NCBI GenBank assembly: GCA_026625185.1
Contig: CP113000.1
Location: forward strand, 465,622 to 497,621
Origin: Thermodesulfobacteriota bacterium
GTDB taxonomy: Bacteria; Desulfobacterota; WTBG01; JAGOGO01
Direction of reading: 5' to 3'
DNA: 32,000 nucleotides
Each line of letters begins with the position of its first letter. The stretch's first letter is position 1. Under the pieces are notes generated by a model, which worked only from the letters and a program-made list of their open reading frames with translations, ran no database searches and was not told where the DNA came from. This document shows, in pieces, positions 2,725-32,000 of the stretch. Position numbers and translations under genes: made by a program.

Positions 2725-2731
2725 ATAACTG

Positions 2732-3943: not shown

Positions 3944-4013
3944 ATTAAACTTTTTTTGATTTATCTATCACATCAAAAGGGAACATGCTTTGGTGTTTGC
4001 TAATGGATTGAAC

Positions 4014-4029: not shown

Positions 4030-4129
4030 GGATTGTTGTTGACAGGACAGGAGTTTCTATGATGTTGAAAATATTGAAATTTAAGCGAAGACTACAATGG
4101 AGGAATGATAGCGTGAAGGGTGCCGTTTA

Positions 4130-4160
4130 CTGATATATCAGGACTCTCCTGATATATCAG
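4130..4160. promoter_or_regulatory. Two copies of the perfect 12-bp palindrome CTGATATATCAG (4130..4141 and 4149..4160); candidate enhancer (UAS) for the sigma54 activator
   Basis: Both palindromes were read directly, 19 bp centre to centre, ~105-130 bp upstream of the -24 element. They overlap the last codons and stop of the activator gene. Confidence 0.55.
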
Positions 4161-6186: not shown

Positions 6187-6617
6187 TGATTCGCACTCAT
6201 GAATTCTTGGGTTTCAGATCGATGCCGACAAGAAACCTTTCCGTGTCCGACATGTCGCCAATGAGCTTTCTCAGCGGCAGGGGGAGTTTCTTGATGAGCG
6301 TTGGGGTGGCAATAATCTGCTCTCCCTTGGCCAGCTTGGGCTGTTGGTAGATGTCTATCACATCGAGTTCGTAGCAGCCTTCCAGGTGTTTTTCACAGAG
6401 TTTCCGGACATTGGCGATTGTCCGGGTTGACTTTGGGGTCATCCCAGTAACATACAGCCGAAAAACATACCTTGTCCGGTCTCGCCTCGCGGCCGCTTTT
6501 TCGAATTCCTCAGCGCTCGTTTCCCCTTTTTTCATCTTCATGTCTGTTACTCCAAAATTTATTTTATCATCCGGAGACAGAACGAATGTCGAGTCCTACC
6601 AGCACGCGCTCAGTGTT
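6142..6617. repeat. Right copy of the perfect direct repeat (partner 1..476)
   Basis: See 1..476. It spans the activator start, the complete proximal kaiB and the last 51 nt of the distal kaiB. Confidence 0.95.
6197..6541 (-). CDS. kaiB: KaiB-family protein (paralogue 2, adjacent to the activator)
   Basis: Same 114-aa protein as 56..400. GGAG lies 8 nt upstream of the ATG. Only 10 nt separate its stop from the activator ATG. Confidence 0.9.
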   Translation of the reverse strand: MKMKKGETSAEEFEKAAARRDRTRYVFRLYVTGMTPKSTRTIANVRKLCEKHLEGCYELDVIDIYQQPKLAKGEQIIATPTLIKKLPLPLRKLIGDMSDTERFLVGIDLKPKNS

Positions 6618-15800: not shown

Positions 15801-18636
15801 TGTTCGCAACCACCATTCGCCAGATGGTGCGCACAACAGCATCACTACTGAAAAATGCCTCGTAGGGCAGACACAGAAGCGTAAAAGCAACCTGACCAAG
15901 GCTCCGGCCGCTCGCGCGGAGTGCGCCGAAAATGTGCTGACCAAGAAGGACATCCCCCGGCTTCTGAAGGAGTTCCATGAAGGAGGTAAGCAAAGAAGGA
16001 ATCAGGATGATCCCCATCACCGATAAGGTCCAGAACCAGGGCGAGGGCAAAACCGTCCATCCGAGGAGGAGCAGGAGGGTCAATGCTAAAGGCGAAAGGC
16101 TGCGCCTAAGGTTGTCGAAAATCTTCCAGCGGGAGAGCAGGGGGAGAGGATTCTTCTGAAAATGCGCATCAGGGGCGGGTACACCCGGGAGCAGCCATCT
16201 GAAAAGCTGCCAATCACCGCGAATCCAGCGGTGTCGGCGATTCACGTCGGCGCTATAGTGAGAGGGGTATTCCTCGTATAACTGGACATCACTCAAAAGC
16301 CCTGCCCGTGCATAGCAGCCTTCGATAAGATCATGGCTCAAGATCCGATTCTCCGGGAAACGTCCCTTGAGGGCACGCTCGAATGCATCAACCTCATAGA
16401 TGCCCTTACCGATAAAGGAGCCTTCTTCGAAAAGGTCCTGATAAACATCAGAGACTACTCGGGTATAGGGATCGATACCGGCATCGCTTCCCCACATGCG
16501 GGCATACCGTGACCGGTTGGTGCCGGGCAGACTCACGGCCACCCTTGGCTGAAGAATACCGTATCCGGCAGAGATCCGTTGCTGGTTTTCATCGTAATGG
16601 GGACGATTCAGCGGGTGCGCCATTGCCCCCACTAGTTGCCGTGCCGCATCGCGCGGGAGTTGGGTATCCGTGTCAAGGGTAATGATATATTTCACCTTAC
16701 CTAATAATTCCGAATTTCCGACGATGAGCGAAAAGCAATCCCGTGAGCCGCCACGAAGAAAGGAATTCAGATCCCCAAGCTTTCCCCGTTTACGTTCGTA
16801 CCCCATCCAAATATTGTCCTGGGAATTAAAGCGGCGTGGACGGTGAAAAAGGAAGAAGGTGTCGTCTGGTGAAGTTCGGTACTTCTCGTTCAACGCTTCT
16901 ATTCTCTGACGGGCCAGCGCTAGCAGGGGCTCATCCTCGGGCAGATTTTCCTCGTTGGCGTCCCGAAAATCAGTGAGCAGCCCAAAAAGCAGGTTTTCGT
17001 CCCGGTTTGCCAGGAACCTGACTTCCAGCGCATCCATCAGATGCTCGACATTTTCAGCGCCGGTGATCATTGTGGGGACCACCACCAAAGTTGAAGATTC
17101 CGAGGGAATTCCTTTCGAGAAGTCCATTCTCGGGAGCGGACGGGGCGCCACCAGGAGCGTCGTCAGCCAGTTCGCCAGTGCCAGGGCTAATTGGCTTACA
17201 CCGAGAAGCGAGAGTATCCCCAAAACCCACAGCAAAACGCCGTGCACCCCATGGGAATACGCTTTCCCAAGCAAACATCCGGTAAATATCGCCGTGATCA
17301 GACCCATCGTGCCAATATAGAAGAGTAAAGGAAATCGGTGGATTATATTTTTGATCGCCTCAGTGGAAGATAAGCGCATTCCGGCGAGCCCTTCGAGCTC
17401 AGCCAACCCTTTGTCGATAAGGTAGAAGCCGACATGGTTCGCCCGACCGTCGTTGTCACACTTTCCCCCACCAACACTGGCAAGGCGTATTGCTTCTCGC
17501 GCCACCTCTTTTTCGGATAATCGGCTGCTTTTCGCAATCTTCTCCACCACGTGACGGTACTGATCACGGGTCGTAAAATCCATCTTTTTATAGACCCCGG
17601 CCGGGTCCTCACCGAGTGTATCTTCCACAACGCTCATGTTTTCGACGAACGTGCGCCAGTCCATAGCGCCCAGAAAACGGAGGCTGCCGATACTGTTGCT
17701 GATGGAAAGCTGATCTGCCGCCTGTTGCTGGTTCTCCGACTGGATTAAGTGCTCAATCGTCAGGCTTGACTCTGCAAGTTGCTGCTCAATCCAGGTAAGC
17801 GGCAATGCGAGAGCGGGACCCTGACCCTGCAGGCGGCGTGTCAGTTCCGCGACAAAAGCGCTCACCAGGGGAGGCTTTGAACGCGCCATGTCGGCAATGA
17901 CCAGGATTAAATCCTTTGGGTTCTTTTCGGCAGTCTCGGTAATTTTGTCCGCCCAATAATCGGCATTGTTCCGGTCGATCCGGTCGGCAGCAATCCGTGT
18001 TGAAACGCGCCGGAGATTTTCAATGAGCGCCAGGCGCAGCATGATCGGGATTGCCCATAATTCGCCCAGCTTCAGCACGGTAACCGTCTGATAGGCCGCG
18101 ACAAAGCTCGTGAGACTCTCTGGATCCACCCTCCCGTCGCCGTGAGAAATCGTCTCCAGCGCAATATCGTAGACACGGGGAAGCCCGGATGACGGACCAT
18201 TTTTCAAACGGGGCAGTCCCTTGCTGTAACCCTTGGGCAAATGTCTCTTGGCTGTGCGAACCTGTTCTTCGATGAGATAAAAGTTGTCGAGGAGCCATTC
18301 CCCTGCCGGTGTAATCCTCCGGTTTCCTTTTACGGCCTCAGTAAGCAGGTCCCGAACTTCATGGAGGACGCCTTCATTCTCACCCAGGCGTGACAGCAGT
18401 TGTTCAGGGACAGAGGCTGTGCTCACGGTGTGGGTGCCTGCAAGGGTCTTGCCGTGCTCCTCCATCTGTGCGGCGCTAAATAAGTCCGATCGAAGCGGTT
18501 GTTCCTCATCAATGCGCCTTTGCGCTGGACGGTTACCATGGAGACGCGCCCACAAATGGGGCAGGTTCCCGATAATGTTCTTCCTGAGGGATGTCAAATG
18601 AAAAATCTCCTTGCTGAGGACTAAAGGTTTGAGCAA
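9898..18636 (-). CDS. ndvB: Cyclic beta-1,2-glucan synthase (NdvB/Cgs/ChvB type): membrane GT84 glycosyltransferase fused to a GH94 phosphorylase-like domain
   Basis: 2,912 aa single ORF. GT region [35 protein letters not shown], with multiple TM segments. C-terminal GH94-type GDWNDGMN and (alpha/alpha)6-like region. The TTG start at 18636 is uncertain; an alternative TTG at 18597 has AAGGAG 9 nt upstream. Confidence 0.9.
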
Positions 18637-19322
18637 CCGGATTGTAGCTTTGGTAGCATCGTGGACCCCACGTCTAAAGTTGTCACCAATAATATTTTTT
18701 AGGTAGGGGCAGGTTAGTTAATTAATTTAATTTATACCTTTATCGTTTTAAATACCAGCTTTATATTGCTTACGAATTGTCTCAAATAAGACATTACCCA
18801 CGGGGTAGTTTAGGAAGGATCGTTGACTCACAAAGAGGTATTACCAAACACCAATCACAGAAAGAGGATTGGAGATGGGTCCGCAATCAAAAAAGGATAT
18901 AATGAATCGAAATCCATTGCGGTTACCATTGAAAACACGCCATCAGAATAATTGAAAGATGCAAGCGGGTTACCAAACCAAAGGCAAAGAGGCAAGGAAT
19001 ATCTCCCGTTTACTAAAACAATGATATATAACAAACCCATCAAAATTCCGTCGCCTAAAGACATGGCCGATTATTTGTATAGTGTATCGCAGGGTGTGTC
19101 ACTCTGTTTTTTCGTTGTTGGTGCGGCAAGCTGCTTTGAATGCACAAACTTTTGAATGGTGTACACACACTCAAATTTTTAAGCCGCATTTTAAAAGGCC
19201 TTTACGTGGGTAGCAAATCCGATTTTTCTGCATCCCCCCTGGCCTAAAATCAGGTGTCCATAGTGGTGTCTAACAGCGGTATTTCTCTATATCACTCCAT
19301 AGCATTAAAACTCACTTAATAA

Positions 19323-19350
19323 GTTGAACCTATAGAGTTGAACCTATAGA
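19323..19350 (+). repeat. Perfect 14-bp tandem repeat x2 (GTTGAACCTATAGA)
   Basis: Read directly in the non-coding gap. Confidence 0.8.
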
Positions 19351-19451
19351 AAACTCGGGGAGAATATTCGTGCAGACTTGCCTTTGAAGCGAATTTGGAA
19401 ATGGACAATAACCACAGAATGAGGACCTAAGAGTCTCTAAACAACGTACTA

Positions 19452-19473
19452 ATAGGGTATAAATAGGGTATAA
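19452..19473 (+). repeat. Perfect 11-bp tandem repeat x2 (ATAGGGTATAA)
   Basis: Read directly. Confidence 0.8.
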
Positions 19474-19489
19474 ACATAGAAGTTAAGAC

Positions 19490-19507
19490 TTACGTTAAGT
19501 AACGTAA
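19490..19507. repeat. 8-bp perfect inverted repeat TTACGTTA-ag-TAACGTAA, 17 bp outside the tRNA-Arg fragment
   Basis: Read directly. Confidence 0.7.
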
Positions 19508-19523
19508 CTAGTTGTTATTATTA

Positions 19524-19569
19524 GCGCGCCCAGGGTGACTCGAACACCCAACCTACGGATTCGTAGTCC
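19524..19569 (-). pseudogene. Displaced 3' half of a tRNA-Arg(ACG); putative att site of the integrative element to its right
   Basis: Minus strand reads (aagga) CTACGAA TCCGT AGGTT GGGTG TTCGAGT CACCC TGGGCGC G, i.e. anticodon loop (ACG), stem, variable loop, T-arm and 3' acceptor strand. No GCGCCCA 5' acceptor or D-arm is present on the 5' side. Confidence 0.7.
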
Positions 19570-19688
19570 TTTTAATCCACCTTCATATAATTTCACTTAC
19601 CTTCAAAAATCACTTGAAAATTCTGATAGTTTGGTGTATTATTCATTCATATTAATTCATATAAACCCACTTGTTTTCACCGAAAAAG

Positions 19689-19707
19689 TGGGGACAGAAT
19701 GGGGACA
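19689..19707 (+). repeat. Direct repeat TGGGGACA x2 (11-bp period) between att and int; candidate integrase arm-type sites
   Basis: aGTGGGGACAGAATGGGGACAAAT read directly. It lies 45-60 bp upstream of the int start. Confidence 0.4.
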
Positions 19708-19751
19708 AATTCCAGCATACGCTAATGTTTTTCATAATGAGGTAGTTAAAG

Positions 19752-20990
19752 ATGGTAACAAAATGGCACTCAACAAAATTCCCGGGAGTCAGGTATCGGG
19801 AACATAATACCAGAAAACACGGGGTTGGTAAAGATAAATATTTTGCTATTCGGTATCAGAAAGATGGAAAACGTAAAGAAGAAGGCCTTGGTTGGTATAC
19901 AGAGGGATGGTCGGCAAATAAGGCAGCGATCGTCTTAGCAGAACTGAAAAAAGGTTTTGTCACTGGTGAGGGTCCTACTCGGCTATCGGAGAAGCGAGAA
20001 GCTGCGAAGGAAAAGAAGGCTCAAAAACAGGCCAGGAAAAGAGAAGAAGAAATTGATGCCTTAACCTTTGGAAATTTTTTTGAAGAAACCTACTTCCCTC
20101 AATCAAAGCCAAATAAATCTCCCAGGTCATGGGCAAGAGAAGATCAATTTTATCGCTTATGGATTTTTCCGGTCATAGGAGAAAAACCCTTAAAGAAGAT
20201 CTCTCCGCTGGACCTAGAGCGTATTAAGAAGAATATGGCAGAGGTTGGGCGTGCTCCCAGATCGATCCATTATTGCCTCGCCGTTATTCGGCAGGTATTT
20301 AACTTTGCCCGTGCAGTTAGCCTCTATGAAGGCGATCACCCGGTATCCAAGATCAAAAAACCAAAGGTAGACAATAGACGCCTGCGTTTTCTGACCAAGG
20401 AGGAAGCGAGTCGACTCCTCAAGGAGTTAGAATTGAGGAGCCAGCAGTTGCACGATATGGCCCTTCTGTCGCTCCATTGTGGCTTGAGAGCAGGAGAGAT
20501 CTTTGATCTCACCTGGTCGGATGTAGATTTAGAGCACGGTGTCTTAATGCTAAAGGATACAAAAGGAGGGAAGAATAGACCAGCATTTATGACAGAGGAA
20601 GTCAAACACACCCTTAGATCGTTGAAGCGTGGAGGCCCAGGGGATTTGGTCTTCACGGACAGAAAGGGGAATAAAGTCAAGGAAATTTCTAATGCTTGCA
20701 GCAAGGCTGTAAAGGACCTCGGCCTGAATGAAGGCATTGAAGACAAAAGATACCTTGTAACTTTCCACAGCCTCAGGCATACCTTTGCGAGCTGGCTTGT
20801 AGAAAATGGGACCGACCTCTACACGGTGAAGGAGCTCTTAGGACATAGTACTCTTGCGATGACGGAAAGGTATTCACATCTAAGCAATGGGAAACTCCAA
20901 AAAGCTGTTCAGGATCTGGATAGATCATTAGCAAATAGGACGTCAAACAAACTACGACCCACTATGAAGATGAAAACAAATGAAGAATAA
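19752..20990 (+). CDS. int: Tyrosine recombinase / phage-type integrase
   Basis: 412 aa. C-terminal catalytic region LSLHCGLRAGEI...FHSLRHTFASWLVENGTDLYTVKELLGHSTLAMTERYSHL (R..HxxR..H..Y). N-terminal arm-binding-like domain. Confidence 0.92.
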   Translation: MVTKWHSTKFPGVRYREHNTRKHGVGKDKYFAIRYQKDGKRKEEGLGWYTEGWSANKAAIVLAELKKGFVTGEGPTRLSEKREAAKEKKAQKQARKREEEIDALTFGNFFEETYFPQSKPNKSPRSWAREDQFYRLWIFPVIGEKPLKKISPLDLERIKKNMAEVGRAPRSIHYCLAVIRQVFNFARAVSLYEGDHPVSKIKKPKVDNRRLRFLTKEEASRLLKELELRSQQLHDMALLSLHCGLRAGEIFDLTWSDVDLEHGVLMLKDTKGGKNRPAFMTEEVKHTLRSLKRGGPGDLVFTDRKGNKVKEISNACSKAVKDLGLNEGIEDKRYLVTFHSLRHTFASWLVENGTDLYTVKELLGHSTLAMTERYSHLSNGKLQKAVQDLDRSLANRTSNKLRPTMKMKTNEE

Positions 20991-21732
20991 AAAACCCGAT
21001 TGGACAAACCCGGAAGATTACGAGTATAGGGGGGGAGTATTTTGTACTGAGGTGGAATTTTTCTGTTGGGAATTCTTGAGGCGTAACAAGAATTATCGCA
21101 AAGACTGGAAAAGAGAACTGGCTAACTTTCTTGAGCGAAAAAAGCCCTTACAAAAACGAGACAGATTTGAGCTTTCCTTTTGTGGTGTAACACCAGATGA
21201 CCCCAAATGCGCAAAAAAGTACGGCTTAGCTTGGCTTTGCGATCCGGATGAAGACATGCCTAATCTCAGCTTTAAAAACATAAATGGGTCGATTAACTTA
21301 AGCAAGAATGATCTATTTGCACTCGGGATTGACCCTGAAGCACTTGAAGAAATCGAGCCCATAGAAGTTCCAGATAGTAAAGCGGCATATATTTTTGATT
21401 TAAGACTGCCAATTAAACCACAAATCGGGAAGGCAAATGAATTACTCCTAAAGGCTCAGGAATCCCTAAAAGGATGTGGAGCACTAAAACTTTTTAAACC
21501 CATCAAAACACACATGGATGACTGGGCGACATACCTTAGGATTTATGACGCTAGTATAGAGGGTAAAAAACCTTCAGAAATCGCGACGGAAATTTATCCC
21601 AAGGTTCCCGATGTTAAGCCTGATTATTATGGTAGGGACACAGTACGCAAGAATCTACAGGCTGCCAAAAAATTGATTAATGGTGGCTACAAGAAATACC
21701 TCCTCAGTTCGGAAAAATTGCGACACCCCTAA
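20980..21732 (+). CDS. Hypothetical protein with an N-terminal WEFLRRN-motif domain, resembling the transcriptional-regulator-like/DUF6499-type domain seen on integrative elements
   Basis: 250 aa. The motif FFCWEFLRRNKNYRKDW lies near the N-terminus. The gene overlaps the int stop by 11 nt. The family assignment is from memory of the motif only. Confidence 0.45.
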   Translation: MKNKKPDWTNPEDYEYRGGVFCTEVEFFCWEFLRRNKNYRKDWKRELANFLERKKPLQKRDRFELSFCGVTPDDPKCAKKYGLAWLCDPDEDMPNLSFKNINGSINLSKNDLFALGIDPEALEEIEPIEVPDSKAAYIFDLRLPIKPQIGKANELLLKAQESLKGCGALKLFKPIKTHMDDWATYLRIYDASIEGKKPSEIATEIYPKVPDVKPDYYGRDTVRKNLQAAKKLINGGYKKYLLSSEKLRHP

Positions 21733-21813
21733 TAATCCTTTTACAACTATTTCAAACTGGGACAGACTCCTAAGTGTTTATACATCAATATAAATTCACT
21801 TATGGAGGTTCCC

Positions 21814-22050
21814 ATGCATCAACATCAAAGTACCCCAAACCTTACAGCAATGGCTGCGAAATGGCCTTCTGAGTTCGTTTCCCGTGAAAGGGTAAGCGAA
21901 TTTTCCGGAGGCATTCTCCACCCGAGAACTTTGGCAAATTTAGATTCCAAGGGGGAGGGCCCCAAGCGGATCCGCATCGGCAGGAAGGTTGCTTATAACG
22001 TGCATGATCTTTGTGATTGGCTCGCGAAAAGAACACAAAATATTAAATGA
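21814..22050 (+). CDS. AlpA/excisionase-like small HTH DNA-binding protein
   Basis: GGAGG lies 5 nt upstream of the ATG at 21814 (the track ORF begins at 21802). Pattern VSEFSGG..HPRTLANLDSKGEGPKRIRIGRKVAYNVHDLCDWL is typical of AlpA/Xis-type winged HTH proteins. Its position between int and the primase also fits. Confidence 0.6.
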   Translation: MHQHQSTPNLTAMAAKWPSEFVSRERVSEFSGGILHPRTLANLDSKGEGPKRIRIGRKVAYNVHDLCDWLAKRTQNIK

Positions 22051-22061
22051 GGGGTTGAGAA

Positions 22062-23972
22062 ATGGACGAAAGCGAAAAAGTCCCAAGCGAGCTCAAAGAA
22101 CTTCCTCAATGGGTATGCTGGAGGTATGAGGGAAGCGACGGAAAGCAAAAGAAGCGTCCAATTTCCCCAAATTCCGGACGGCCAGCTGCAACAAATGCTC
22201 CAGGTGACTGGAGTACATTCAAACATGCTCAAGAATTTCTTGCTCTTCCCAAGAGCCGTGGAATGGCCGGTATCGGCTTTGTATTCAGTGATTCTGATCC
22301 TTACTGCGGCATTGACATTGACAACTGCCAGAACCCAGAAACGGGAGAACTAACCCCGCTTGCCCAAGCTATCGTCAGGGAAATAGGTTCATATACGGAG
22401 ATTTCCCCAAGTGGCCGCGGAGTGCACATCATTGTAAAGGGTAAGCCACCCTTCCCCAGATGCCGATGCTCTAATTATGGTGTCGAGATTTATTTTAAAA
22501 ATCGCTATTTCACTTTCACCGGAAACGTGCTTGATGAATATCGCGTGATCAAAGACATGCGACCCGAGTCATGGGGTTTTCTCAAGCCCTTTTTTGATCC
22601 GAACCTGCCGCTGTCACCGGACTCATCCCTTAACACTCTAAAATTGCTTCAGGAGCCAGCCCTGGTTGATGATCTGTTGATCTCCAAGGCAATGGCTGCA
22701 AAAAACGGGGAGAAATTTAAGCGGCTTATGGAAGGGGATCTCTCTGACCACGGAGGTGACCACAGTGGGGCAGACATGGCCCTTTGTACAATTCTGGTCC
22801 ACTTGTCAAAAGGTAATAAGGCCCAAATGGATCGCATTTTCAGGACCTCCACCCTAATGCGCCCGAAATGGGACGAAAGGCATAGTGCCGACGGACGAAC
22901 CTATGGGGAGATGACTATTGACAAGGCTATTGAATACACCAAAGAGGAGGGTAACATGGTTACTGAAGGAGAGTGCTTCACAGCAGCCGATCTCATTGAA
23001 AGGGACTTACCCGAACCTAAATTTGTAATTGAGAAGATTTTGGCTGAAGGATTAGCCATTCTTGCTGGGAAGCCCAAAATAGGAAAATCCCTTTTCGCTT
23101 TACAAATGGCCAGTTGTGTTGCCCTTGGAGAAAAAGTTTTGGGAGAATTTAGAACTGAGAAAGGGACAGTCCTCTATTTAGCGTTAGAAGATAATGAAAG
23201 GAGATTGCAGAAACGCATCCGTAAGTTATTGCCCAAGGGAGTCCAGGCCCCAAAGAATTTGATATTCAAAACCATACACCATGGGGGTCTGAACTCGTTA
23301 GATCGTCTTATCAAAGAGTTAGCTCCAGTCCTTGTAATTATTGATACCCTGGCCTGTTTTCGGCCTGGTGCAAAAAGGAAGAACGGCGTGCTTTATGACG
23401 AAGACTATCAAGAGATTAAATCAATTAAAGCTATAGCCGATCAAAACCATACCACGATCCTTCTTATCCACCATCTAAGGAAGATGGAGTCAGTAGATCC
23501 AATTGATACTGTATCTGGAACTTCCGGATTAACCGGGGCCGCGGACACTATCTTGGTGCTGACGAGAAAGGGGACCAGCAGGGTAGATGCAATACTCCAT
23601 ATAAGAGGGCGGGATGTTGAGCAAGATGAGGTTCCGTTAAAGTTCGATCCAAAAAACCTCTCTTGGCAATCCCTCGGCTCGCCATCAAATTTAAAAACTA
23701 CCAATCAACAACAAATTCTTTTTAATGCACTTAAAAATAATTCGTCCCCTGAAAAGCCGCTTACTGTTCCAGAGCTTTCGCAACTAACAGAATTGACCGA
23801 ACAGTATATCCGAAACACACTTCCGAAGTTTTTAGAAGATGGTTCTATTAGAAAGCTTGATAGGGGGAAGTATTATTATATTGGAGATAATAAAGATAAT
23901 GCATTTAATGCAGATATAAATGATAACGATGATAATAAGGATATTGAGGACAATGAGGACAAAGGGGCTTGA
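22062..23972 (+). CDS. Replication protein: N-terminal primase-polymerase (Prim-Pol) domain, PriCT-like helical domain, RepA/AAA_25-type ATPase, C-terminal wHTH and an Asn/Asp-rich tail
   Basis: 636 aa. WVCWRYE...KRPISP, GIGFVFSDSDPYCGIDIDNC, EISPSGRGVHIIVKG (Prim-Pol). GDHSGADMALCTILVH (PriCT-like). Walker A AGKPKIGKS and Walker B LVIIDTL. Tail DNKDNAFNADINDNDDNKDIEDNEDKGA. Confidence 0.8.
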   Translation: MDESEKVPSELKELPQWVCWRYEGSDGKQKKRPISPNSGRPAATNAPGDWSTFKHAQEFLALPKSRGMAGIGFVFSDSDPYCGIDIDNCQNPETGELTPLAQAIVREIGSYTEISPSGRGVHIIVKGKPPFPRCRCSNYGVEIYFKNRYFTFTGNVLDEYRVIKDMRPESWGFLKPFFDPNLPLSPDSSLNTLKLLQEPALVDDLLISKAMAAKNGEKFKRLMEGDLSDHGGDHSGADMALCTILVHLSKGNKAQMDRIFRTSTLMRPKWDERHSADGRTYGEMTIDKAIEYTKEEGNMVTEGECFTAADLIERDLPEPKFVIEKILAEGLAILAGKPKIGKSLFALQMASCVALGEKVLGEFRTEKGTVLYLALEDNERRLQKRIRKLLPKGVQAPKNLIFKTIHHGGLNSLDRLIKELAPVLVIIDTLACFRPGAKRKNGVLYDEDYQEIKSIKAIADQNHTTILLIHHLRKMESVDPIDTVSGTSGLTGAADTILVLTRKGTSRVDAILHIRGRDVEQDEVPLKFDPKNLSWQSLGSPSNLKTTNQQQILFNALKNNSSPEKPLTVPELSQLTELTEQYIRNTLPKFLEDGSIRKLDRGKYYYIGDNKDNAFNADINDNDDNKDIEDNEDKGA

Positions 23973-24192
23973 AGTTTGTCACCAATGTCCTTTTCTATGT
24001 TTTTACCATAGGACAATTATTTAATAAAAATTTCAATAGGTTATGACGTTTGTCCTCAATGTCATCGATATCACCGAAATTTGGAGTTATGAAAACGACA
24101 GAAAAAATGAAAATAATCCTTCAGCAAAATACTGTTTTCCCGGAGATGGAAAAGTAAATCAAAGCATACATTGCTATTAAAACAGGAGTGCG

Positions 24193-24579
24193 ATGGGACG
24201 AAAACGAAAAGAAATTGACCTTCAAGCTATTCTGATGCTGGCATCCAGAGGCATGACTCAGGTTGAGATTGCCAAGGAACTCGGAGTTTCCCATGTCACC
24301 CTTGCAAAACGGATGGGAGAATTGCGGGTAAAGGAAGGTCCCTTGAAAGAATATAGATGCTTGCTGGGCCTTCAGCTTACCGCTCTTCAGTGCAGGAGTC
24401 TGGAGGCACTTACTCCCGAAAAGTTGAATGGCGCCTCCCTAATCGAACTTGCGAGGGCATTTAGTTTTTTAAAAAAAGCCGAACTTTTAATGGAAGGGAA
24501 GCCAACCAAAATTAGGGGAATCTTAGCCTATTTGTTGGAAATGGAAAAAGAGGATAAAGACCCTTTATCCAAAAGTTAG
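24193..24579 (+). CDS. HTH-domain protein (regulator or small-terminase-like)
   Basis: 128 aa. ASRGMTQVEIAKELGVSHVTLAKRM is a classic HTH. AGGAG lies 4 nt upstream of the ATG. Confidence 0.55.
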   Translation: MGRKRKEIDLQAILMLASRGMTQVEIAKELGVSHVTLAKRMGELRVKEGPLKEYRCLLGLQLTALQCRSLEALTPEKLNGASLIELARAFSFLKKAELLMEGKPTKIRGILAYLLEMEKEDKDPLSKS

Positions 24580-24662
24580 CAGGCGACTAAAACCTCAGGT
24601 TAATTTACCAGCTCTTTATCATTGCTTTTAAAGCAACTTACTTGAAATTGTTTTAAATCTTA

Positions 24663-24691
24663 TTGACTTTTTTTTGTTATTTTGATATAAT
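24663..24691 (+). promoter_or_regulatory. Near-consensus sigma70 promoter TTGACT-N17-TATAAT
   Basis: Read directly (ttgact tttttttgttattttga tataat), ~150 nt upstream of the 95-aa ORF. Confidence 0.65.
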
Positions 24692-24838
24692 TGTTTAAAT
24701 TTAAAGACATAAGTCAATTCCTTATTCAACAATAGCCTGGCCTTTAAGGAGAGGCTCATATAACTCCTTCCGTTACATAAAATGCCTAACGGTTATTCAA
24801 CTAAGACGAAAATGGGGTTTAAAGATTAAGAAAGGATA

Positions 24839-25126
24839 ATGGTCATGAAGAAGAACAGCCAGGGAACCAGTATTGACGAGATAATGGAGAAGCACGGATT
24901 TGGAGCCGGGTCGAGCGGAGGTGGATGCGAGTGGTATACAAAGCCCATAACCTATAAAGGGAAAAAGGCCTTTGTCGCTATCACGGATGATGGTGGGTTA
25001 AGCCTTCCTGAATCGCTGGAAGAGCCAATATATGTGGGTATTTATGACATCGATTCAGGCGACGAACTGGAGGAAGCGAAGAAATTCAGCTCTCTGAAGT
25101 TTTATCTGGACACGCTCATAGACTAA
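24839..25126 (+). CDS. Small acidic hypothetical protein (95 aa; the start may be the ATG at 24845)
   Basis: Open frame with its own promoter and terminator. Asp/Glu-rich (ITDDGG, PESLEEP, YDIDSGDELEEAKK). No family recognised. Confidence 0.5.
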   Translation: MVMKKNSQGTSIDEIMEKHGFGAGSSGGGCEWYTKPITYKGKKAFVAITDDGGLSLPESLEEPIYVGIYDIDSGDELEEAKKFSSLKFYLDTLID

Positions 25127-25164
25127 TTCTTACCTCATTAAATTTATAAAATGGTTATTGCAAA

Positions 25165-25187
25165 GGGTCTCAATTCGAGGCCCTTTT
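25165..25187 (+). terminator. Rho-independent terminator
   Basis: GGGTCTC aattc GAGGCCC followed by TTTT. The 7-bp stem contains one G-U pair. It lies 39 nt after the 95-aa ORF stop. Confidence 0.65.
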
Positions 25188-25245
25188 ATATTGACCCAAA
25201 AATCGAACCTCTCCTACCTAAAGAACCAGCCAGCATGCATCCCAT

Positions 25246-25436
25246 GATAATGGTCTCCCAATGACCTGTATCCAGGAAGAAAGAAGGCTATCTTAAAGAG
25301 TAGAAAAGAAAAAAAACGATTGACCTTGGAACTCAAAAAGCAATATAATTTTAAAATAAAAAACAAAGGCCTGGACAACCCTGGGGTCTCAAACTCGGGT
25401 TAGAAAAATTTACTAATTGGGCCTGAAGACATACAT
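25246..25436 (+). repeat. ~190-bp non-coding repeat element, copy B (partner 9033..9220, inverted)
   Basis: See copy A. It lies between the terminator at 25165..25187 and vsr. Confidence 0.75.
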
Positions 25437-25526
25437 TCCCCCAACAAACCGCTTACTGGAGAGGGTAAAAAGTCTGGGGAGGGGTAGACAATAGATATTT
25501 TCACAAAGAAAAAACGCAGCGAGATA

Positions 25527-25913
25527 ATGTCTAAGGTTAAATCTCAGGACACAAAACCCGAGATTGCTGTTAGATCCGCTTTGCACAGGCTGGGATACCG
25601 ATTTCGATTAGGAGGAGGAGGCCTTCCTGGGAAACCCGACATCATCTTGTCCAAATATCGGACAGTTATCTTTGTCCATGGATGTTTTTGGCATCAGCAC
25701 CCAGGTTGCAAAAAATCAAAGATACCGGCTCAAAATTCTCTTTTCTGGTCAAAAAAATTGTCACGGAATAAGGAACGTGACAAAAGAGTTCGAGCTGAGC
25801 TTGAAAAACTGGGATGGAAAGTTAAGTTTCTCTGGCAATGCGAAATTCACCCCAGCGGGCTGCCCGGGCAGTTGAGAAATATCTTTAATAGAGGTAACCA
25901 TGAAATCCGTTAA
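25527..25913 (+). CDS. vsr: Very-short-patch repair endonuclease (Vsr)
   Basis: MSKVKSQDTKPEIAVRSALHRLGYRFRL....LPGKPDIIL.KYRTVIFVHGCFWHQH is the Vsr signature (DTKPE, FVHGCFWH). It overlaps the next gene by 14 nt. Confidence 0.9.
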   Translation: MSKVKSQDTKPEIAVRSALHRLGYRFRLGGGGLPGKPDIILSKYRTVIFVHGCFWHQHPGCKKSKIPAQNSLFWSKKLSRNKERDKRVRAELEKLGWKVKFLWQCEIHPSGLPGQLRNIFNRGNHEIR

Positions 25914-27189
25914 CGAATGCAAGCCTCACCGAGTAAGTGAAACGGCAGAGGTCCTCAAAGCATCCAGCGCGGAGATAAACACCAAGCTAGTCAGGGAAAT
26001 ATTGTCATATACCAATTGGAACTCAATCAAGAAAATCCTAAAAGGAAAGTCCATTGACTTTATTGACTTCTTCTCGGGAGTCGGGGGGCTAACGTACGGA
26101 TTTCATTCCATAGCGGTGGAAGCGGATCTTTTCAACCTAATCGGTGCCTTTGATATCGATCAACATGCAAACAAAACTTATATTCGTAATTTCGGATTTG
26201 CCCCAAGTAATTTGGATCTCTCGTCGGCAACTATTGACCAGATTAAAAGTTGTTTGAAAACCGATAAATTAAAGAAATGGAATCCTCTGATTATCCTGGG
26301 GGGACCTCCCTGCCAAGGGTTCTCAGCACATAAAAAAAAGGACCCGCGCCTTGATCCTAGGAACTCGCTTTTGGCGAGATTTGCGGAAATCTCCGTAAAA
26401 CTTGATGCGGAACTTATTATTACTGAGAACGTTCCCGATCTTTTAGGCAAGAAGCACTGGCACCACTATCAGGCATTTCAATCTACTCTTGAAAAAGGGG
26501 GATATCACATTGCAGCTGATATTCTGAATATGGCCGAATACGGAGTTCCTCAGGAGAGATTTCGTGCTGTAATTATAGCATCGAAACATTTTGTTCCTAC
26601 CCTTCCCGAGCCACAATTGAGTCGGAGAGCTTTCAGAACCGTCCGGGATGCGATAGGTGCGCTTCCCCCATTGGAAGCGGGCGGTTTCTGTAAAAGCGAT
26701 CAGATGCATATCACGTCCAGACATAGGAAAGAAACCGTCGATTTGATTAAGAGGATTCCGAAGAACGGGGGTTCACGCCCTGCCGGTATGGGGCCTCCAT
26801 GCCTGGACAGAGTCAAAGGGTTTTATGACGTTTACGGCCGACTATCCTGGGATCGTCCTGCTGTAACGATCACAGCTCGTTGCAGAACGCCCTCTTGCGG
26901 AAGGTTTGTTCATCCTGAACAGGACCGAGGGCTTTCGGTAAGAGAGGCCGCCCTTCTTCAAGGTTTCCCTCCAAGCTATATTTTCGAAGGGCCCTTCGAC
27001 GATAAATTCAAACAGATCGGGAATGCCGTTCCGCCCATATTTTCGTTGCATCTCGCAGCTCATGTCCTTTCAATGCTGGCCGGCAAAAATCGCGGGGAAG
27101 CCGGTTGCGAGAAACTTATTCGCGAACCCCTTTTTGACTCTTATAGTGGAGTTATTGCCGGGCTTAAACGAACCAGTCATATAACTTAG
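25900..27189 (+). CDS. DNA (cytosine-5)-methyltransferase 1
   Basis: 429 aa. Motif I FIDFFSGVGGLTYGF, IV GGPPCQGFS, VI ENV, VIII QERFRAVIIA, X GNAVPP. Confidence 0.93.
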   Translation: MKSVNECKPHRVSETAEVLKASSAEINTKLVREILSYTNWNSIKKILKGKSIDFIDFFSGVGGLTYGFHSIAVEADLFNLIGAFDIDQHANKTYIRNFGFAPSNLDLSSATIDQIKSCLKTDKLKKWNPLIILGGPPCQGFSAHKKKDPRLDPRNSLLARFAEISVKLDAELIITENVPDLLGKKHWHHYQAFQSTLEKGGYHIAADILNMAEYGVPQERFRAVIIASKHFVPTLPEPQLSRRAFRTVRDAIGALPPLEAGGFCKSDQMHITSRHRKETVDLIKRIPKNGGSRPAGMGPPCLDRVKGFYDVYGRLSWDRPAVTITARCRTPSCGRFVHPEQDRGLSVREAALLQGFPPSYIFEGPFDDKFKQIGNAVPPIFSLHLAAHVLSMLAGKNRGEAGCEKLIREPLFDSYSGVIAGLKRTSHIT

Positions 27190-27197
27190 GTTTTTGC

Positions 27198-28226
27198 ATG
27201 GGAAAACCTCAAACAATCGATTGCTTCTGCGGTGCGGGAGGACTTTCTCTCGGGTTCTCTATGGCGGGTTTCGAAACTACATATGCCTTTGATTCTGACC
27301 CCGCTTGTATAAGAACCTATTCGCACAACCTTGAGGGATATGCGGAAGAAAGAGATATTGCTAGTATCTCAAAGTCTTCGATTGAAGGAATTGTGGGGAA
27401 GGCATTAGATAATTTTGATGTTGTGATGGGTGGCCCCCCCTGTCAGGGGTTTAGTGTTCAAAGGAGAGGCAACGACTCGGATCCTCGTAATAATTTGGTT
27501 TTGGAGTTTGTTCGTCTCGTACTCGAAATTCAGCCTCGTTTCTTCTTGATGGAGAATGTAGGTGGATTGTTATCCCCTCGTGGTAAACAATTCTTGAATC
27601 ATTTAAACGAACGATGCCGAAAGGCAGGATACTTCCTAACGATCGCCAAGCTAAATTCTTTTGATTTCGGAGTTCCTCAGATTAGAAAAAGAGTCTTCAT
27701 TGTGGGGGAACTGACGCAAAACGTGTTTCCTCGCTTTTCCCTCCCGAAGGGTATTAAAAATCGAATTACTTTTCCTTCAACTGTTCGGCAAGCGATTGAA
27801 GATCTTATACTCAAAACGGAAACTGAGATCCCCAACCACAAAGCGGACAAGCTCTCTGCCATCAATTTGGCACGTATCAGATCCATAGAAGAAGGAGAAG
27901 GCCGCGAGTCTCTACCGCCAGAGTTGCAGCTGAATTGCCATAATAACAATGCTGGCCATCGACACCTGGATGTTTACGGACGATTGGCTTGGGATTTACC
28001 GAGTCCTACAATTACAGCTAGATTTGATAGTTTTTCCAGAGGACGATTTGGCCATCCCATATTGGATCGGACAATAACACTGAGAGAAGGTGCCCGTCTC
28101 CAATCTTTTCCTGATGATTTCGTTTTTTCGGGAACCAAGGTTCAGGTCGCCCAACAAATCGGAAACGCTGTACCACCGCTTTTAGCTTTAGCTTTAGCGG
28201 AAAGTATAAAAACTGCTTTGGAATAG
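27198..28226 (+). CDS. DNA (cytosine-5)-methyltransferase 2
   Basis: 342 aa. Motif I IDCFCGAGGLSLGF, IV GGPPCQGFS, VI MENV, VIII QIRKRVFIVG, IX TLREGARLQSFPD, X GNAVPP. Confidence 0.93.
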   Translation: MGKPQTIDCFCGAGGLSLGFSMAGFETTYAFDSDPACIRTYSHNLEGYAEERDIASISKSSIEGIVGKALDNFDVVMGGPPCQGFSVQRRGNDSDPRNNLVLEFVRLVLEIQPRFFLMENVGGLLSPRGKQFLNHLNERCRKAGYFLTIAKLNSFDFGVPQIRKRVFIVGELTQNVFPRFSLPKGIKNRITFPSTVRQAIEDLILKTETEIPNHKADKLSAINLARIRSIEEGEGRESLPPELQLNCHNNNAGHRHLDVYGRLAWDLPSPTITARFDSFSRGRFGHPILDRTITLREGARLQSFPDDFVFSGTKVQVAQQIGNAVPPLLALALAESIKTALE

Positions 28227-28235
28227 GGGGAATTT

Positions 28236-30587
28236 ATGCTAGATCACTGGCCCTCAGGGGGGCGCGATACAACACAATTTCCTGATTTCGATATAGCTAT
28301 TGAACCAGAGGACTTCCGAAGACATCTTGGCGCATTTTGTAGGCTGGAAAACATAGGTTGGAGTGACTACCCGAAGCAGGAGGAGGTAGCGGCCCTGAGT
28401 GTCGAGCCACAACGATACCGATCTTACAGAAAATTGTACCAAAACCTAGGCCTCATTTATCGGAAAGATGAGAAGATAGGACTTTCACTCTTTGGTCAGA
28501 GATTATGCCAACTACCTTCAGAATTGAGAGCCAATCTTGACGCCGGCCTCCACGAACTAAGAAATATGGCTGTGAAAATATTATCAAGATATCAATTGTT
28601 AAATCCTACCGAGGATCAGAGAGATGACTTGCCCCCAGACTGCGATGTTCTCCCGTGTATCTGTATTTGGCAGGCCATGATCTCTTTGGATAACAAACTC
28701 CATCATGAGGAATTGAATAGGGTTATTTTGCGTGTGATGCGGATGGCTGATCTTGATATCGCTATCAAGAAAATAGAAAATGCTCGCAAGTTCGGTACAT
28801 CTTATTCGCAGCAAGATGAAAATACTTTAGCGGAAATGCTAGGTAATCCGGTACATACAAATCAACCGACAGCAAGGGTAGCCTACTGGTATTCCTTTGC
28901 AGGATGGGGCGGTCTGATCATCGAGCGCAATGCGGATTCAGAAGGCTTCAGACATCTTAATGTCGATATGCTCAATATCACACAGGAAGCCATCAAGAAT
29001 CCTCCCGGGTTTTATCAGGCCAAAGATGAGACTGATTGGGAACGATATTATATTGGTGATCTTACGACACAAGTCAGCTCCTCTGAAGCAAAAATTGAAT
29101 CGGATCTTTCGAATCTCTTGACCCACTTGATCAACGGCCTTGAGTCCGCAAACCTGAGGTTCTCAAAAAACATTCTTGCAAGATTTCTCGCAAGCTGTCT
29201 CACCAAAAGACTTATTCTGCTGACTGGATTGTCCGGATCGGGAAAGACAAAACTGGCGCAGGCTTTTGCTATGTGGATTACCGGCAAAGTGGGCACTGAC
29301 AACGATCCGTTCAAGACAGGCAGTGAAATAAAATCCGACCGCATTTCGTACCATGTCAGCTCATCAGACTCAATCTCTATTGAATTTCTTAATGCCGAAA
29401 ATGAGGAAGAAGCAACAAAAGTGTTATTGCCTCGATCTCTTATAAAAGAGTGGGCGGAGGTTATCAGAGACAACGACTTCACTCGCGAAACACCCGCCCG
29501 AACAATAAGGGAGATGGTGGGTAAAAAGACCTCTTTTTCAACTCAACTCAATTCTTTTGAAACACATCTTAAGGCGGCTGCATTTGCACTCATTGAGTCA
29601 GCCAATCAGAACGTGGGAGAGAAAGGATATGAAGTTGTTGCCGTGGGAGCAGATTGGGACAATAGCGAAAATCTTCTCGGTTATCCCGATATGCTGAGAC
29701 TGAAAGAGAAAAGCTATGTAAAGCCTTCTAATGGTATTTTGGATTTGATATTACGCGCCCGCTTCAATCCCAACCTCCCTTTCTTCTTAATCCTTGACGA
29801 GATGAATCTTTCCCATGTTGAGCGATACTTTGCCGATTTTCTCTCTGCAATGGAATCAGGGGAACCCATTAATCTTCACGAAGGATCTGAGAGGGACTTA
29901 TGGGGCGAGAATCATGAAGTTCCCGGCAAGCTTCATTTACCTGAAAATCTATTTATCATAGGAACGGTGAATATTGATGAGACGACATACCTATTTTCAC
30001 CTAAGGTATTGGATCGAGCCAACGTGATTGAATTTCGCGTTGATACAGACCAAATGGAAAAATTTCTTAGTTCCCCGGGTGGGTTGTCTCTTGAATTACT
30101 GAAAGGCAAAGGGTCAGCTTTTGGTAGATCTTTTGTAAGTGCAGCAAAGCTCGGAAATGTTGCTATCGAAAAAATCGCTCGTCATACAGAATCGGATTCC
30201 ATGCGAATCCTCTCGGAAGACGAAACCCCTTTAGATGTTGAAGAACCTGTTTCCATAAAACTCAGGAAAGACCTTTCAGAGGTATTCAACGTCCTGGCTA
30301 AGGTCGGCGCAGAATTTGGTTATCGCACGGTATTCGAGATGAGTCGATTTATCTATTATTACACTCTGATATACGGCAAGGAAGCCAGGTACCTAGATGC
30401 TTTTGATGTACAGCTTATGCAAAAACTTTTGCCGAAGTTAAATGGATCAATTCGTAAATTGGGGCCTGTGCTTGAAAGTCTCCAGGAAGTCTGCGCAAAG
30501 CATGATCTTCGGATCAGCTTGGAAAAAATCCAGCGAATGAGTCGCAACCTTGACCAAAACGGATTTACGAGTTACGCCGAGGCCTAG
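28236..30587 (+). CDS. McrB-like AAA+ (GTPase-type) restriction subunit with an unrecognised ~320-aa N-terminal domain (R1.LlaJI-like position)
   Basis: 783 aa. Walker A LLTGLSGSGKT; YEVVAVGADWDNSENLLGY (equivalent to McrB VQFHQSYSYEDFIQGY); Walker B FFLILDEMNLSHVERYF; NLFIIGTVNIDETT...VLDRANVIEF. Confidence 0.85.
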   Translation: MLDHWPSGGRDTTQFPDFDIAIEPEDFRRHLGAFCRLENIGWSDYPKQEEVAALSVEPQRYRSYRKLYQNLGLIYRKDEKIGLSLFGQRLCQLPSELRANLDAGLHELRNMAVKILSRYQLLNPTEDQRDDLPPDCDVLPCICIWQAMISLDNKLHHEELNRVILRVMRMADLDIAIKKIENARKFGTSYSQQDENTLAEMLGNPVHTNQPTARVAYWYSFAGWGGLIIERNADSEGFRHLNVDMLNITQEAIKNPPGFYQAKDETDWERYYIGDLTTQVSSSEAKIESDLSNLLTHLINGLESANLRFSKNILARFLASCLTKRLILLTGLSGSGKTKLAQAFAMWITGKVGTDNDPFKTGSEIKSDRISYHVSSSDSISIEFLNAENEEEATKVLLPRSLIKEWAEVIRDNDFTRETPARTIREMVGKKTSFSTQLNSFETHLKAAAFALIESANQNVGEKGYEVVAVGADWDNSENLLGYPDMLRLKEKSYVKPSNGILDLILRARFNPNLPFFLILDEMNLSHVERYFADFLSAMESGEPINLHEGSERDLWGENHEVPGKLHLPENLFIIGTVNIDETTYLFSPKVLDRANVIEFRVDTDQMEKFLSSPGGLSLELLKGKGSAFGRSFVSAAKLGNVAIEKIARHTESDSMRILSEDETPLDVEEPVSIKLRKDLSEVFNVLAKVGAEFGYRTVFEMSRFIYYYTLIYGKEARYLDAFDVQLMQKLLPKLNGSIRKLGPVLESLQEVCAKHDLRISLEKIQRMSRNLDQNGFTSYAEA

Positions 30588-30589
30588 TC

Positions 30590-32000
30590 GTGCCACTGCT
30601 TGAACATACTGCTGAATTCCCAGGTTCTGGCCACCCACCGATAACAATCTCAATCTATCCTAAAGTCCCAGCCGCCGGTGGACAGGATAGCCTTATAGTA
30701 ATAGACCGGTCCCTAAAATATGTTGCGGGCGAAGAAGCCGACATTCAGCTTTTAGAGTCCTGCGAATACGAATTTGAGTTAAGTTCTCCTGGCTATTTAG
30801 TGACAACATCGTATGAGTCTGACCGTATTATCATTCCTAGCCGAATAAAACGAGGTAAGCTCTCTGGCACACTTCGTCCCGGGCTATTTGTTGGTTGCCT
30901 TGACCTGCTTCTTCTAGATAACCAAAAGAATGTCATATCTAGTTTGCCGGTTGAAATCAGATCAGTGAAACTGTCTTACCGTAATGATTTTCGCAACATG
31001 TTGGATTTCATCATGGAAAAAAGCCTTGGGCTTTTACTTCAAATACGTTCTCCAGCCACAGGAATGCTCACACCAGACCCGGGCCGAACTGCAGAAACCA
31101 TTGCACAACGTTTCGCGTTTCTACGTTCATTAATAGGGTCCAGGGAGTTTCAGGACTCCATAACTCGGATAGCAGTGCTACCCCACTCCCACCTGGAGTG
31201 CCGCGAAATAAAGGTGCCTGTTTCGCGATCATTTAGAGGGACTAAGCGGACCGCAAAGGAACTTGCGAGAGGCTCTCAAAGATTGCAACTTCCTAAAGAG
31301 CATCCCCTCACTGAAATTCTTGACACAGCACCCGTATCTATTGTTATTCATCGCAAGAAAACAACAATAGATACTCCTGAAAACCGCTTCGTCAAATTCG
31401 CCCTTAGGTCATTCCTGACCTTTCTAAACCGCATGAAAAATAGGCTGGAACAGATAGGTGAAAAAACTACGTCTGCTTTATATCATGATGTGGAAGCCCT
31501 TGAGGAAAATCTTGAAGCGATCCTCTACCGCCCTTTCTTCAAGGAAATATCCGATCCGTCAATACTCTCTCTAGGTAGTCCAGTTCTGCAGCAAAAAGGA
31601 GGCTACAGGGAGCTACTTCGGGCTTGGCTGTATTTTGATCTTGCAGCCCGACTCAGTTGGTCTGGAGGGGAAGACGCTTTTAAGGCTGGTCGCAGGGACA
31701 TAGCGATGTTATATGAATATTGGGTTTTCTTCAAACTACTTGATATTATGGGTCAAACATTTGACCTCGAAACTCCTCCCGCGCAAGAACTGGTTACCGA
31801 GACGCCAGATGGTTTCGAATTGAGGTTAAAGGCAGGCGAGTATACCGTCATCAATGCCATTTGTGAGAGATTCGGAAGAAGATTAAATGTTCGTTTTTGT
31901 TACAACCGCACGTTCTCGCGTCATGGGTCTGATGGAATGACCAATTATCCGAAAGCAGGCTCATGGAGTGAAAGAATGAGACCTGACTACACCTTAACAT
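30590..32000 (+). CDS. McrC-like / DUF2357-type nuclease subunit, 5' partial (runs off the right edge; not in the ORF track)
   Basis: Hand translation from the GTG at 30590 (GAGG 7 nt upstream, 2 nt after the previous stop) gives 470 open codons. These include TPENRFVKFAL, AMLYEYWVFFKLLD and, at the very edge, MRPDYTL, the expected start of a PD-(D/E)xK motif. Confidence 0.7.
   Translation, partial: MPLLEHTAEFPGSGHPPITISIYPKVPAAGGQDSLIVIDRSLKYVAGEEADIQLLESCEYEFELSSPGYLVTTSYESDRIIIPSRIKRGKLSGTLRPGLFVGCLDLLLLDNQKNVISSLPVEIRSVKLSYRNDFRNMLDFIMEKSLGLLLQIRSPATGMLTPDPGRTAETIAQRFAFLRSLIGSREFQDSITRIAVLPHSHLECREIKVPVSRSFRGTKRTAKELARGSQRLQLPKEHPLTEILDTAPVSIVIHRKKTTIDTPENRFVKFALRSFLTFLNRMKNRLEQIGEKTTSALYHDVEALEENLEAILYRPFFKEISDPSILSLGSPVLQQKGGYRELLRAWLYFDLAARLSWSGGEDAFKAGRRDIAMLYEYWVFFKLLDIMGQTFDLETPPAQELVTETPDGFELRLKAGEYTVINAICERFGRRLNVRFCYNRTFSRHGSDGMTNYPKAGSWSERMRPDYTLT

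Follow-up and report, generated by a model that had tools for sequence, protein, structure and literature searches.

A probable LlaJI-type restriction-modification operon on an integrative element, with a predicted Type IIS-like reader and an inserted domain in its McrB-like motor

The operon and its genes

Here we describe a probable restriction-modification (R-M) operon, vsr-M1-M2-R1-R2, from a Thermodesulfobacteriota bacterium (GTDB lineage Bacteria; Desulfobacterota; WTBG01; JAGOGO01; GenBank assembly GCA_026625185.1). It lies in a 32,000-nucleotide (nt) stretch of contig CP113000.1 (positions 465,622 to 497,621 of the forward strand)—hereafter the window, whose own coordinates are used throughout—and its five plus-strand genes form a single, tightly coupled operon of the DNA-defence type. 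The vsr gene overlaps M1 by 14 nt, and the following gaps measure 8 nt (M1-M2), 9 nt (M2-R1) and 2 nt (R1-R2). These positions and spacings, and the single coupled operon that they describe, had been claimed in a first-pass annotation made from the sequence alone and were unchanged when the coordinates were rechecked; its assignment of two complete C5-methyltransferases, an McrB-like AAA+ protein and an McrC/DUF2357-like protein agrees with the Pfam and NCBIfam matches and with the motifs. Lengths are given in amino acids (aa), and the genes are as follows.

25527..25913, plus strand: vsr, very-short-patch T:G mismatch endonuclease (PF03852, 1e-25; TIGR00632, 130 bits against a cut-off of 97.85)
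25900..27189, plus strand: M1, C5-cytosine DNA methyltransferase, 429 aa, with an N-terminal extension of about 50 aa (PF00145, 1e-51)
27198..28226, plus strand: M2, C5-cytosine DNA methyltransferase, 342 aa (PF00145, 8e-67)
28236..30587, plus strand: R1, McrB-like AAA+ protein, 783 aa
30590..32000, plus strand, running off the window end: R2, McrC-like partner, first 470 aa, GTG start; beta-rich N-terminus, DUF2357 at aa 93-346 and the start of a PD-(D/E)xK domain at aa 374-469

The two methylases are only 33% identical to each other, and both carry motifs I (FxGxGG), IV (PPCQGFS), VI (ENV), VIII (QxRxR) and X (GNAV). R2 matches DUF2357 (2e-41) and PDDEXK_7 (8.5e-10) in Pfam, and an R2 homologue lies directly 3' in nearly all of the 87 related loci with enough flanking sequence. 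The complete order Vsr-M-M-R1-R2 recurs at two related loci (L001 and L005), and M-M-R1-R2 is found in Paenibacillus (L006). A vsr gene upstream of the methylases, taken at first as unusual, turned out to be a family trait—the vsr-first order is seen again in L001, L005 and L021 and is no rarity within the family.

Modular organization of R1

A database search with R1 gave 1126 relatives. From BLAST and MAFFT comparisons three separable parts emerge: an N-terminal domain (NTD; aa 1 to about 290), an AAA+ core, and an insertion (aa 352-464). The features of R1 are listed below.

28236..29105, plus strand: NTD, aa 1 to about 290, mainly helical multi-winged-helix module, predicted to recognise DNA sequence-specifically (AlphaFold2 model and Foldseek)
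29226..29249, plus strand: Walker A (P-loop) GLSGSGKT, aa 331-338 (motif and alignment with relatives)
29289..29627, plus strand: insertion, aa 352-464 (113 aa), placed behind the helix that follows Walker A and ahead of strand beta2, with motif SFETHLKAAAFA (clean indel, AlphaFold2 model)
29787..29807, plus strand: Walker B LILDEMN, aa 518-524 (motif and alignment with relatives)
29970..29981, plus strand: nucleoside triphosphatase (NTPase) signature N-I-D-E, aa 579-582, an 'NxD' variant of the McrB NxxD (family alignment)
30036..30587, plus strand: lid and helical region at the C-terminus, with the near-invariant GFTS[FY]AEA as its end (conservation; nothing relevant in Pfam, at E<=10, or in PDB sequences)

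The predicted N-terminal reader and its methylases

The N-terminal part of R1 had been described as matching no recognisable DNA-binding domain, and structural comparison supersedes this. The AlphaFold2 model of the NTD, built on a 30-sequence alignment, is mainly helical with short hairpins and was predicted with high scores (predicted local distance difference test, pLDDT, 91; predicted template modelling score, pTM, 0.81). Its sole significant Foldseek matches in the PDB are N.BspD6I (E 5e-7 to 1e-5, probability 1.0, about 300 columns) and the recognition domain of BpuJI (E 4e-4 to 2e-3), which places the NTD with the readers of Type IIS enzymes. The next matches are generic winged-helix regulators, with FokI at E 0.2, and the B3, EcoRII-N and BfiI-C folds are absent from the Foldseek PDB matches of the model.

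Conservation of the neighbouring genes points to what this domain may read. At all seven loci that bear the NTD (the window, L001, L003, L005, L006, L068 and L074) the arrangement is the same, with an M1 orthologue, then an M2 orthologue, then R1, and identities are 51-65% for M1 and 60-67% for M2; the methylases of loci with other R1 N-termini are merely 25-47% identical. The NTD, for its part, is fused to three different cores: the NxD core with insertion, the NxD core without insertion (e.g. Paenibacillus P0019), and a canonical NTAD McrB core (P0137, 59% identity). Because it always occurs with orthologues of M1 and M2, and is fused to two other McrB-type cores, we regard the NTD as a portable specificity module—very probably a sequence reader matched to M1 and M2, for an asymmetric site. 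The earlier proposal that the NTD determines specificity very probably holds, given the Type IIS reader fold and the co-inheritance with both methylases.

Searches for homologues of the NTD alone, with a single sequence and with a profile, returned close relatives and fragments, the sole new architecture being fusions to an AAA_5 core. Comparison of the NTD profile with the unrelated R1 N-termini of L021 and L007 by hhalign gave probabilities of 5-9%. In L021, regions resembling M1 (40%) and M2 (47%) lie inside a single 787-aa open reading frame (ORF; 2694-5057 of that locus); the gene order there is Vsr, M1-M2 fusion, R1 (797 aa, with an unrelated N-terminus and the insertion present) and R2 (935 aa).

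The McrB-like core

R1 has a marginal sequence match to E. coli McrB (PDB 6hz4, E 0.0017) in which Walker A, Walker B and the downstream blocks align correctly. Against Pfam it gives weak generic AAA matches only, with no match to AAA_5, and its 16 bits for PRK11331 fall short of the cut-off of 637. The N[IV]DE signature is present in nearly all of the 124 relatives that cover the motif, one of which has NVDD. The N-I-D-E signature puts R1 in the NxD branch of McrB-like NTPases; E. coli McrB, by contrast, is of the NxxD type. In the sections of Bell et al. (2024, eLife, PMC11090510) that deal with it, the NxD branch of McrB-like GTPases is described as uncharacterised and often methylase-associated; its members have Walker A, Walker B and a signature N-x-D, after which E or D usually comes next.

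The core is also known from annotation resources. R1 matches PADLOC PDC-M26A with E 3.8e-46, in three pieces to the 724-position profile, so PADLOC already lists the core family among its candidate defence systems, and its relatives are named 'McrB family protein' at NCBI. At the other end of the protein, the tail G-F-T-S-[FY]-A-E-A (aa 776-783, 30561-30584) is almost invariant across the whole family; such conservation hints at a docking or regulatory tail.

The insertion in the AAA+ core

Walker A and Walker B of R1 are separated by 182 aa (K337 to D521, 184), compared with about 70-79 aa in relatives without the insert; the first-pass figures, about 183 aa against roughly 70-80 in E. coli McrB, were close. 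Over 87 related loci the spacing is bimodal, at either 68-79 aa or 173-190 aa, and because of this bimodality we treat the insertion as a true two-state character, not a product of chance. The inserted module of about 110 aa that had been proposed is a clean indel of 113 aa, and its free-standing homologues, described below, extend the proposal. Its AlphaFold2 model (pLDDT 91.7, pTM 0.81) is compact, with four strands followed by four helices.

No known family accounts for this fold. The insertion has no profile match in Pfam at E<=10 or among PDB sequences, and its stand-alone homologues are likewise without a Pfam family; structural searches gave nothing significant in the PDB (best E 0.1) or among the BFVD viral structures (best E 0.02), only a partial likeness to small barrels. 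The first-pass annotation had called the NTD novel, and placement of both R1 modules in known LlaJI-family folds would have told against it. In spirit that is the outcome for the NTD, its fold being known, though it is not the B3 fold of LlaJI; the insertion has no known fold.

A profile search of 1.84 billion representatives found 165 matches to the insertion, mostly within McrB-like proteins. The others are stand-alone proteins of about 105-129 aa or make up the C-terminal domain of longer proteins (394-616 aa), among them one with an Mrr_N domain. In all three forms—inserted, stand-alone and C-terminal—the residues Y, W, R and E-x-H are invariant. Genes for stand-alone homologues occur in four contexts: ahead of GmrSD with a 10-nt gap, next to an McrB/McrC pair, following a gene for a DUF4420 PD-(D/E)xK protein, and divergent from a C5 methylase. 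From these sequence comparisons the insertion appears to be a restriction-associated module without a described domain family.

Among the NxD McrB-type motors sampled, about half have the insertion. Because the sister operons L006, L068 and L074 lack it, the M-M-R1-R2 design can do without it. We also considered an intein or mobile-gene origin and rejected it, as there are no splice-junction residues, conservation is in frame, and the insertion is modelled as a folded domain attached to the AAA+ core. At L102 (7001-7390) and L103 (22-411), a free-standing homologue of 129 aa overlaps the preceding 155-aa ORF and ends 10 nt before the GmrSD (Type IV) gene, so that the three genes are arranged as if co-transcribed.

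The start of vsr and the reading of the operon by gene callers

The Vsr profile match begins at profile position 13-14, and alignment with the Vsr proteins of L001 and L005 indicates that the ATG at 25527 encodes a conserved internal Met; the homologues start 13 codons earlier, with M-x-D-I/V-. A conserved Vsr N-terminus, T-I-D-I-F-T-K-K-K-R-S-E-I, is encoded in frame 5' of this first ATG, reaching back to 25488. Vsr would be made either from a non-canonical start codon or 13 residues short.

An identical contig, L012 (Joint Genome Institute 3300040744 Ga0439198_0004459), corresponds to window positions 18677-31012. Its automatic gene calls miss vsr, with a 65-aa ORF in another frame called in its place, and start R1 at Met148; the deposited protein, P0001, has 636 aa and lacks half of the recognition domain.

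Vsr-like coding sequence is also found about 0.9-1.3 kb 5' of the core match at L042, L058, L091 and L098, directly upstream of, or possibly fused to, R1 relatives without a methylase; at L091 the Vsr-like stretch is covered by no ORF of at least 110 aa. A relative with a single methylase, L007, has a gene for an HhH-GPD glycosylase directly 3' of R2 (10454-11128), possibly the counterpart of Vsr in repairing deaminated 5-methylcytosine (5mC).

Proposed mechanism and alternatives

We think it likely that the operon is a LlaJI-type (Type II/Type IV hybrid) R-M system on an integrative element, and that it works along the following lines. M1 and M2 would place a C5 methyl group on cytosine within an asymmetric recognition site, each enzyme serving one strand, and Vsr, judging from its family, would repair the T:G mismatches that arise when 5mC at these sites is deaminated. 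The NTD of R1, with its Type IIS-enzyme fold, would bind the unmethylated site, as LlaJI genetics and McrBC structures suggest. By analogy with McrBC and LlaJI, the NxD AAA+ ring would engage the DUF2357 finger of R2 and so recruit it; R2 would stimulate the hydrolysis of nucleoside triphosphate (NTP) that drives DNA handling, and its PD-(D/E)xK domain would cut the DNA. The insertion is the least supported step—most likely this accessory domain modulates the motor or the nuclease through an additional contact with DNA or a partner protein, and does not set site specificity. Tentatively, we go further and raise the possibility, doubtful as it is, that the insertion represents an undescribed autonomous domain family, a sensor or regulator that restriction nucleases would have in common, which here would give the site-specific, NTP-driven R1 nuclease a second input (methylation status or foreign modification).

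Several observations weigh against this interpretation. R2 is cut at 'RPD' by the end of the window, so the catalytic (D/E)xK lies outside it; full-length homologues (600-784 aa) continue with HFDAKYK. A full-length vsr has no canonical start, with ATA at 25491 where the homologues have ATG and a TAG stop at 25485. The likeness of the NTD to Type IIS readers is at the level of the fold: the 30-sequence profile found no relevant PDB-sequence match (E<=10), and there was no Pfam match (E<=10). Its TM-scores are modest (TMq 0.32-0.44) and the root-mean-square deviation is large, with the aligned part of the target not specified in the Foldseek output; both are what one would expect if the sub-domains differ in orientation. 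For the motor, the sections of Bell et al. (2024, PMC11090510) on the NxD branch report its enzymes to be without any experiment, and NTP use, translocation and cleavage are argued here by analogy. The insertion is slightly acidic, with a median net charge of -2 (-6 in the window R1), although the predicted DNA-binding NTD is acidic too, so that net charge is uninformative as a hint of DNA binding. A C5 methylase lies upstream at 22 of 31 loci with the insertion and at 12 of 25 without it (19 of 28 and 9 of 22 when the NTD-bearing loci are excluded), and this association is not significant (Fisher p = 0.086; loci not independent).

The main rival to this reading concerns the insertion. R1 could be a dual-reader enzyme in which the insertion itself reads DNA or a modification, here foreign modification or methylation status, while the NTD reads the unmethylated site, and in which cores with the insertion alone act as Type IV enzymes. 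Proteins of 470-520 aa consisting of core and insertion only (e.g. P0043, P0051 and P0077) do pair with R2 with no C5 methylase nearby, and the stand-alone homologues adjoin the Type IV enzymes GmrSD (10-nt gap) and McrBC; the invariant Y, W, R and E-x-H in inserted and free forms suggest a conserved functional site, and Bell et al. (2024, PMC11090510), where they mention such inserts in general terms, guess that insertions in the GTPase domain encode specificity domains. We nevertheless consider this reading unlikely, since the insertion has no fold match to known modified-base readers (SRA, EVE, YTH and ADAM among them), the domain is neutral to acidic, and an upstream C5 methylase at most insertion-bearing loci (22 of 31, in a screen that covered C5 methylases) is not typical of Type IV systems.

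Two further readings do away with part of the proposed system, and both seem to us improbable. In one, which we would put at the very bottom of the scale, R1 and R2 are an ordinary modification-dependent (Type IV) McrBC-like pair beside two unrelated methylases and vsr, the methylases giving no cognate protection. R1 and R2 are indeed relatives of McrB and McrC, and many relatives of the R1 core have no C5 methylase nearby; yet the genes here are joined by 2-9-nt gaps and one overlap, M1, M2 and the NTD are co-inherited in seven of seven loci across three motor types, the NTD fold is that of a sequence-specific Type IIS reader and not of a methyl-base reader, and a 5mC-dependent enzyme alongside two active 5mC methylases would be self-toxic. 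The other has the operon as a decaying, partly inactive cassette: the start codon of vsr is gone, and further defects in the restriction genes may lie outside the window. The ATA in place of an ancestral vsr ATG speaks for this, as do the calls on the identical contig, which missed vsr and began R1 at Met148, and the C-terminus of R2 lying beyond the window. We find decay scarcely convincing, as every reading frame is intact, the catalytic motifs of M1, M2 and R1 are all present, R1 aligns with its homologues end to end (including the invariant C-terminal GFTSxAEA), and Vsr could start at the ATG at 25527 or at an ATA or ATT codon. The LlaJI-type system remains the reading that we prefer.

Genomic setting

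The operon is cargo of an integrative mobile element. The guanine-plus-cytosine (GC) content falls from about 0.55 in the flank to about 0.40-0.46 at about 19 kb; the operon lies inside this low-GC island, at the start of which is a tyrosine integrase. Two further features lie upstream of the operon:

19752..24579, plus strand: integrative-element backbone with a tyrosine integrase, a RovC-like regulator, an NrS-1-type primase-polymerase with AAA_25 helicase, and a helix-turn-helix protein (Pfam matches)
25320..25349, plus strand: candidate operon promoter TTGACC-18-TATAAT, a consensus match only (11 of 12 positions), within the 400-nt gap 5' of vsr

Promoter-like sites in the region are not more numerous than in shuffled sequence. 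Searches for repeats or att sites flanking the operon gave short, chance-level matches only, and no tRNA genes were found in the 32,000-nt window.

The host flank carries genes for KaiB/KaiC, a sigma-54 activator and a 2912-aa GH94 glucan-synthase-like protein. This last ORF (9898-18636, minus strand), which lies in the higher-GC host flank beside KaiBC and the sigma-54 activator, has GH94 supersandwich and catalytic domains and a glucoamylase-like domain, and resembles cyclic beta-1,2-glucan synthase. The flank also contains a perfect direct repeat of 476 nt (1-476 = 6142-6617), the left copy of which is cut by the window start. Each copy holds a complete 114-aa kaiB ORF (56-400 = 6197-6541); the repeat is either a duplication of the kai region or an assembly artefact.

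Comparison with known systems

The operon is otherwise of a recognisable R-M kind, and its core family is known (PADLOC PDC-M26A; 'McrB family protein'). Its value lies in giving the NxD branch of McrB-like motors a concrete member that can be cloned. A Type IIS-style reader and two cognate 5mC methylases appear to move as a cassette among at least three McrB-type motors—a clear case, as we read it, of specificity modules being exchanged between the machinery of Type II and that of Type IV systems. The insertion, in turn, is a compact, delimited domain that recurs beside several unrelated restriction nucleases and makes a target for structural and biochemical work.

The closest known system by architecture is LlaJI, from plasmid pNP40 of Lactococcus lactis, with a homologue in H. 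pylori. Its four co-oriented genes encode a pair of 5mC methylases that act on an asymmetric site, together with an McrB-like R1 and an McrC-like PD-(D/E)xK R2 (PMC1459862), and it restricts unmethylated DNA (PMC1459862, PMC12707154). Genetics identified R1 as the sole specificity subunit, by its N-terminal half, and found both R subunits to be required (PMC1459862). Set against this published description, the window operon agrees in joining a pair of 5mC methylases to R1 and R2 genes of the McrB-like and McrC-like kinds, and the LlaJI layout recognised in the first-pass annotation stands for the architecture. It probably does not extend to orthology between R1 and LlaJI.R1, and it does not extend to the R1 reader: in accounts that cite the structural work (PMC7680126, PMC12707154), the N-terminal DNA-binding domain of H. 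pylori LlaJI.R1 is given a B3 fold. LlaJI.R1 has 585 aa with this B3-fold NTD, whereas the window R1 has 783 aa with a helical multi-winged-helix NTD of the Type IIS kind. The window R1 also differs in its 113-aa inserted domain and probably in its NxD signature, NxxD being the E. coli McrB type. R2 homologues of the window operon have 600-935 aa against about 49 kDa for LlaJI.R2, and the window operon is led by vsr. The closest lactococcal plasmid match to R1, on p275A, covers just the core, at 25% identity, and has a different set of genes around it.

With the Type IV McrBC enzymes of E. coli and T. gammatolerans, the window system has in common the AAA+ core with Walker A and B, the signature Asn and the downstream blocks, together with a partner that combines a DUF2357 finger and a PD-(D/E)xK domain (putative in the window R2). 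McrBC enzymes use DUF3578 (ADAM) or YTH domains to read modified bases and lack a cognate methylase; the window operon has two methylases. E. coli McrB carries an NTAD signature, with about 72 aa between Walker A and B and no insert, in contrast to NxD and 182 aa in the window R1. Features in common with the NxD methylase-associated group of Bell et al. (2024, PMC11090510) are N-x-D followed by E, methylase association, an enlarged McrC partner and insertions in the GTPase domain. The parts of that study concerned with methylase-associated groups defer them to future work and do not describe the NTD, the inserted domain or its free-standing homologues; the window operon fits this methylase-associated NxD McrBC group, noted but not analysed in 2024.

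The modelled NTD fold matches the Type IIS readers of N.BspD6I (2ewf, 5liz, 6qnz) and BpuJI (2vla, 5hnf) significantly, and that of FokI (1fok) at E 0.2 only. Type IIS systems likewise use two methylases per asymmetric site—BpuJI, for one, has two 5mC methylases for its asymmetric site (PMC1874659). In these Type IIS enzymes the reader is fused to the nuclease in one polypeptide, whereas in the window R1 the predicted reader sits on what would be a motor driven by NTP, with the nuclease recruited as a second protein. Among catalogued defence candidates, finally, R1 resembles component A of PADLOC PDC-M26; R2 has no match among the PADLOC models.

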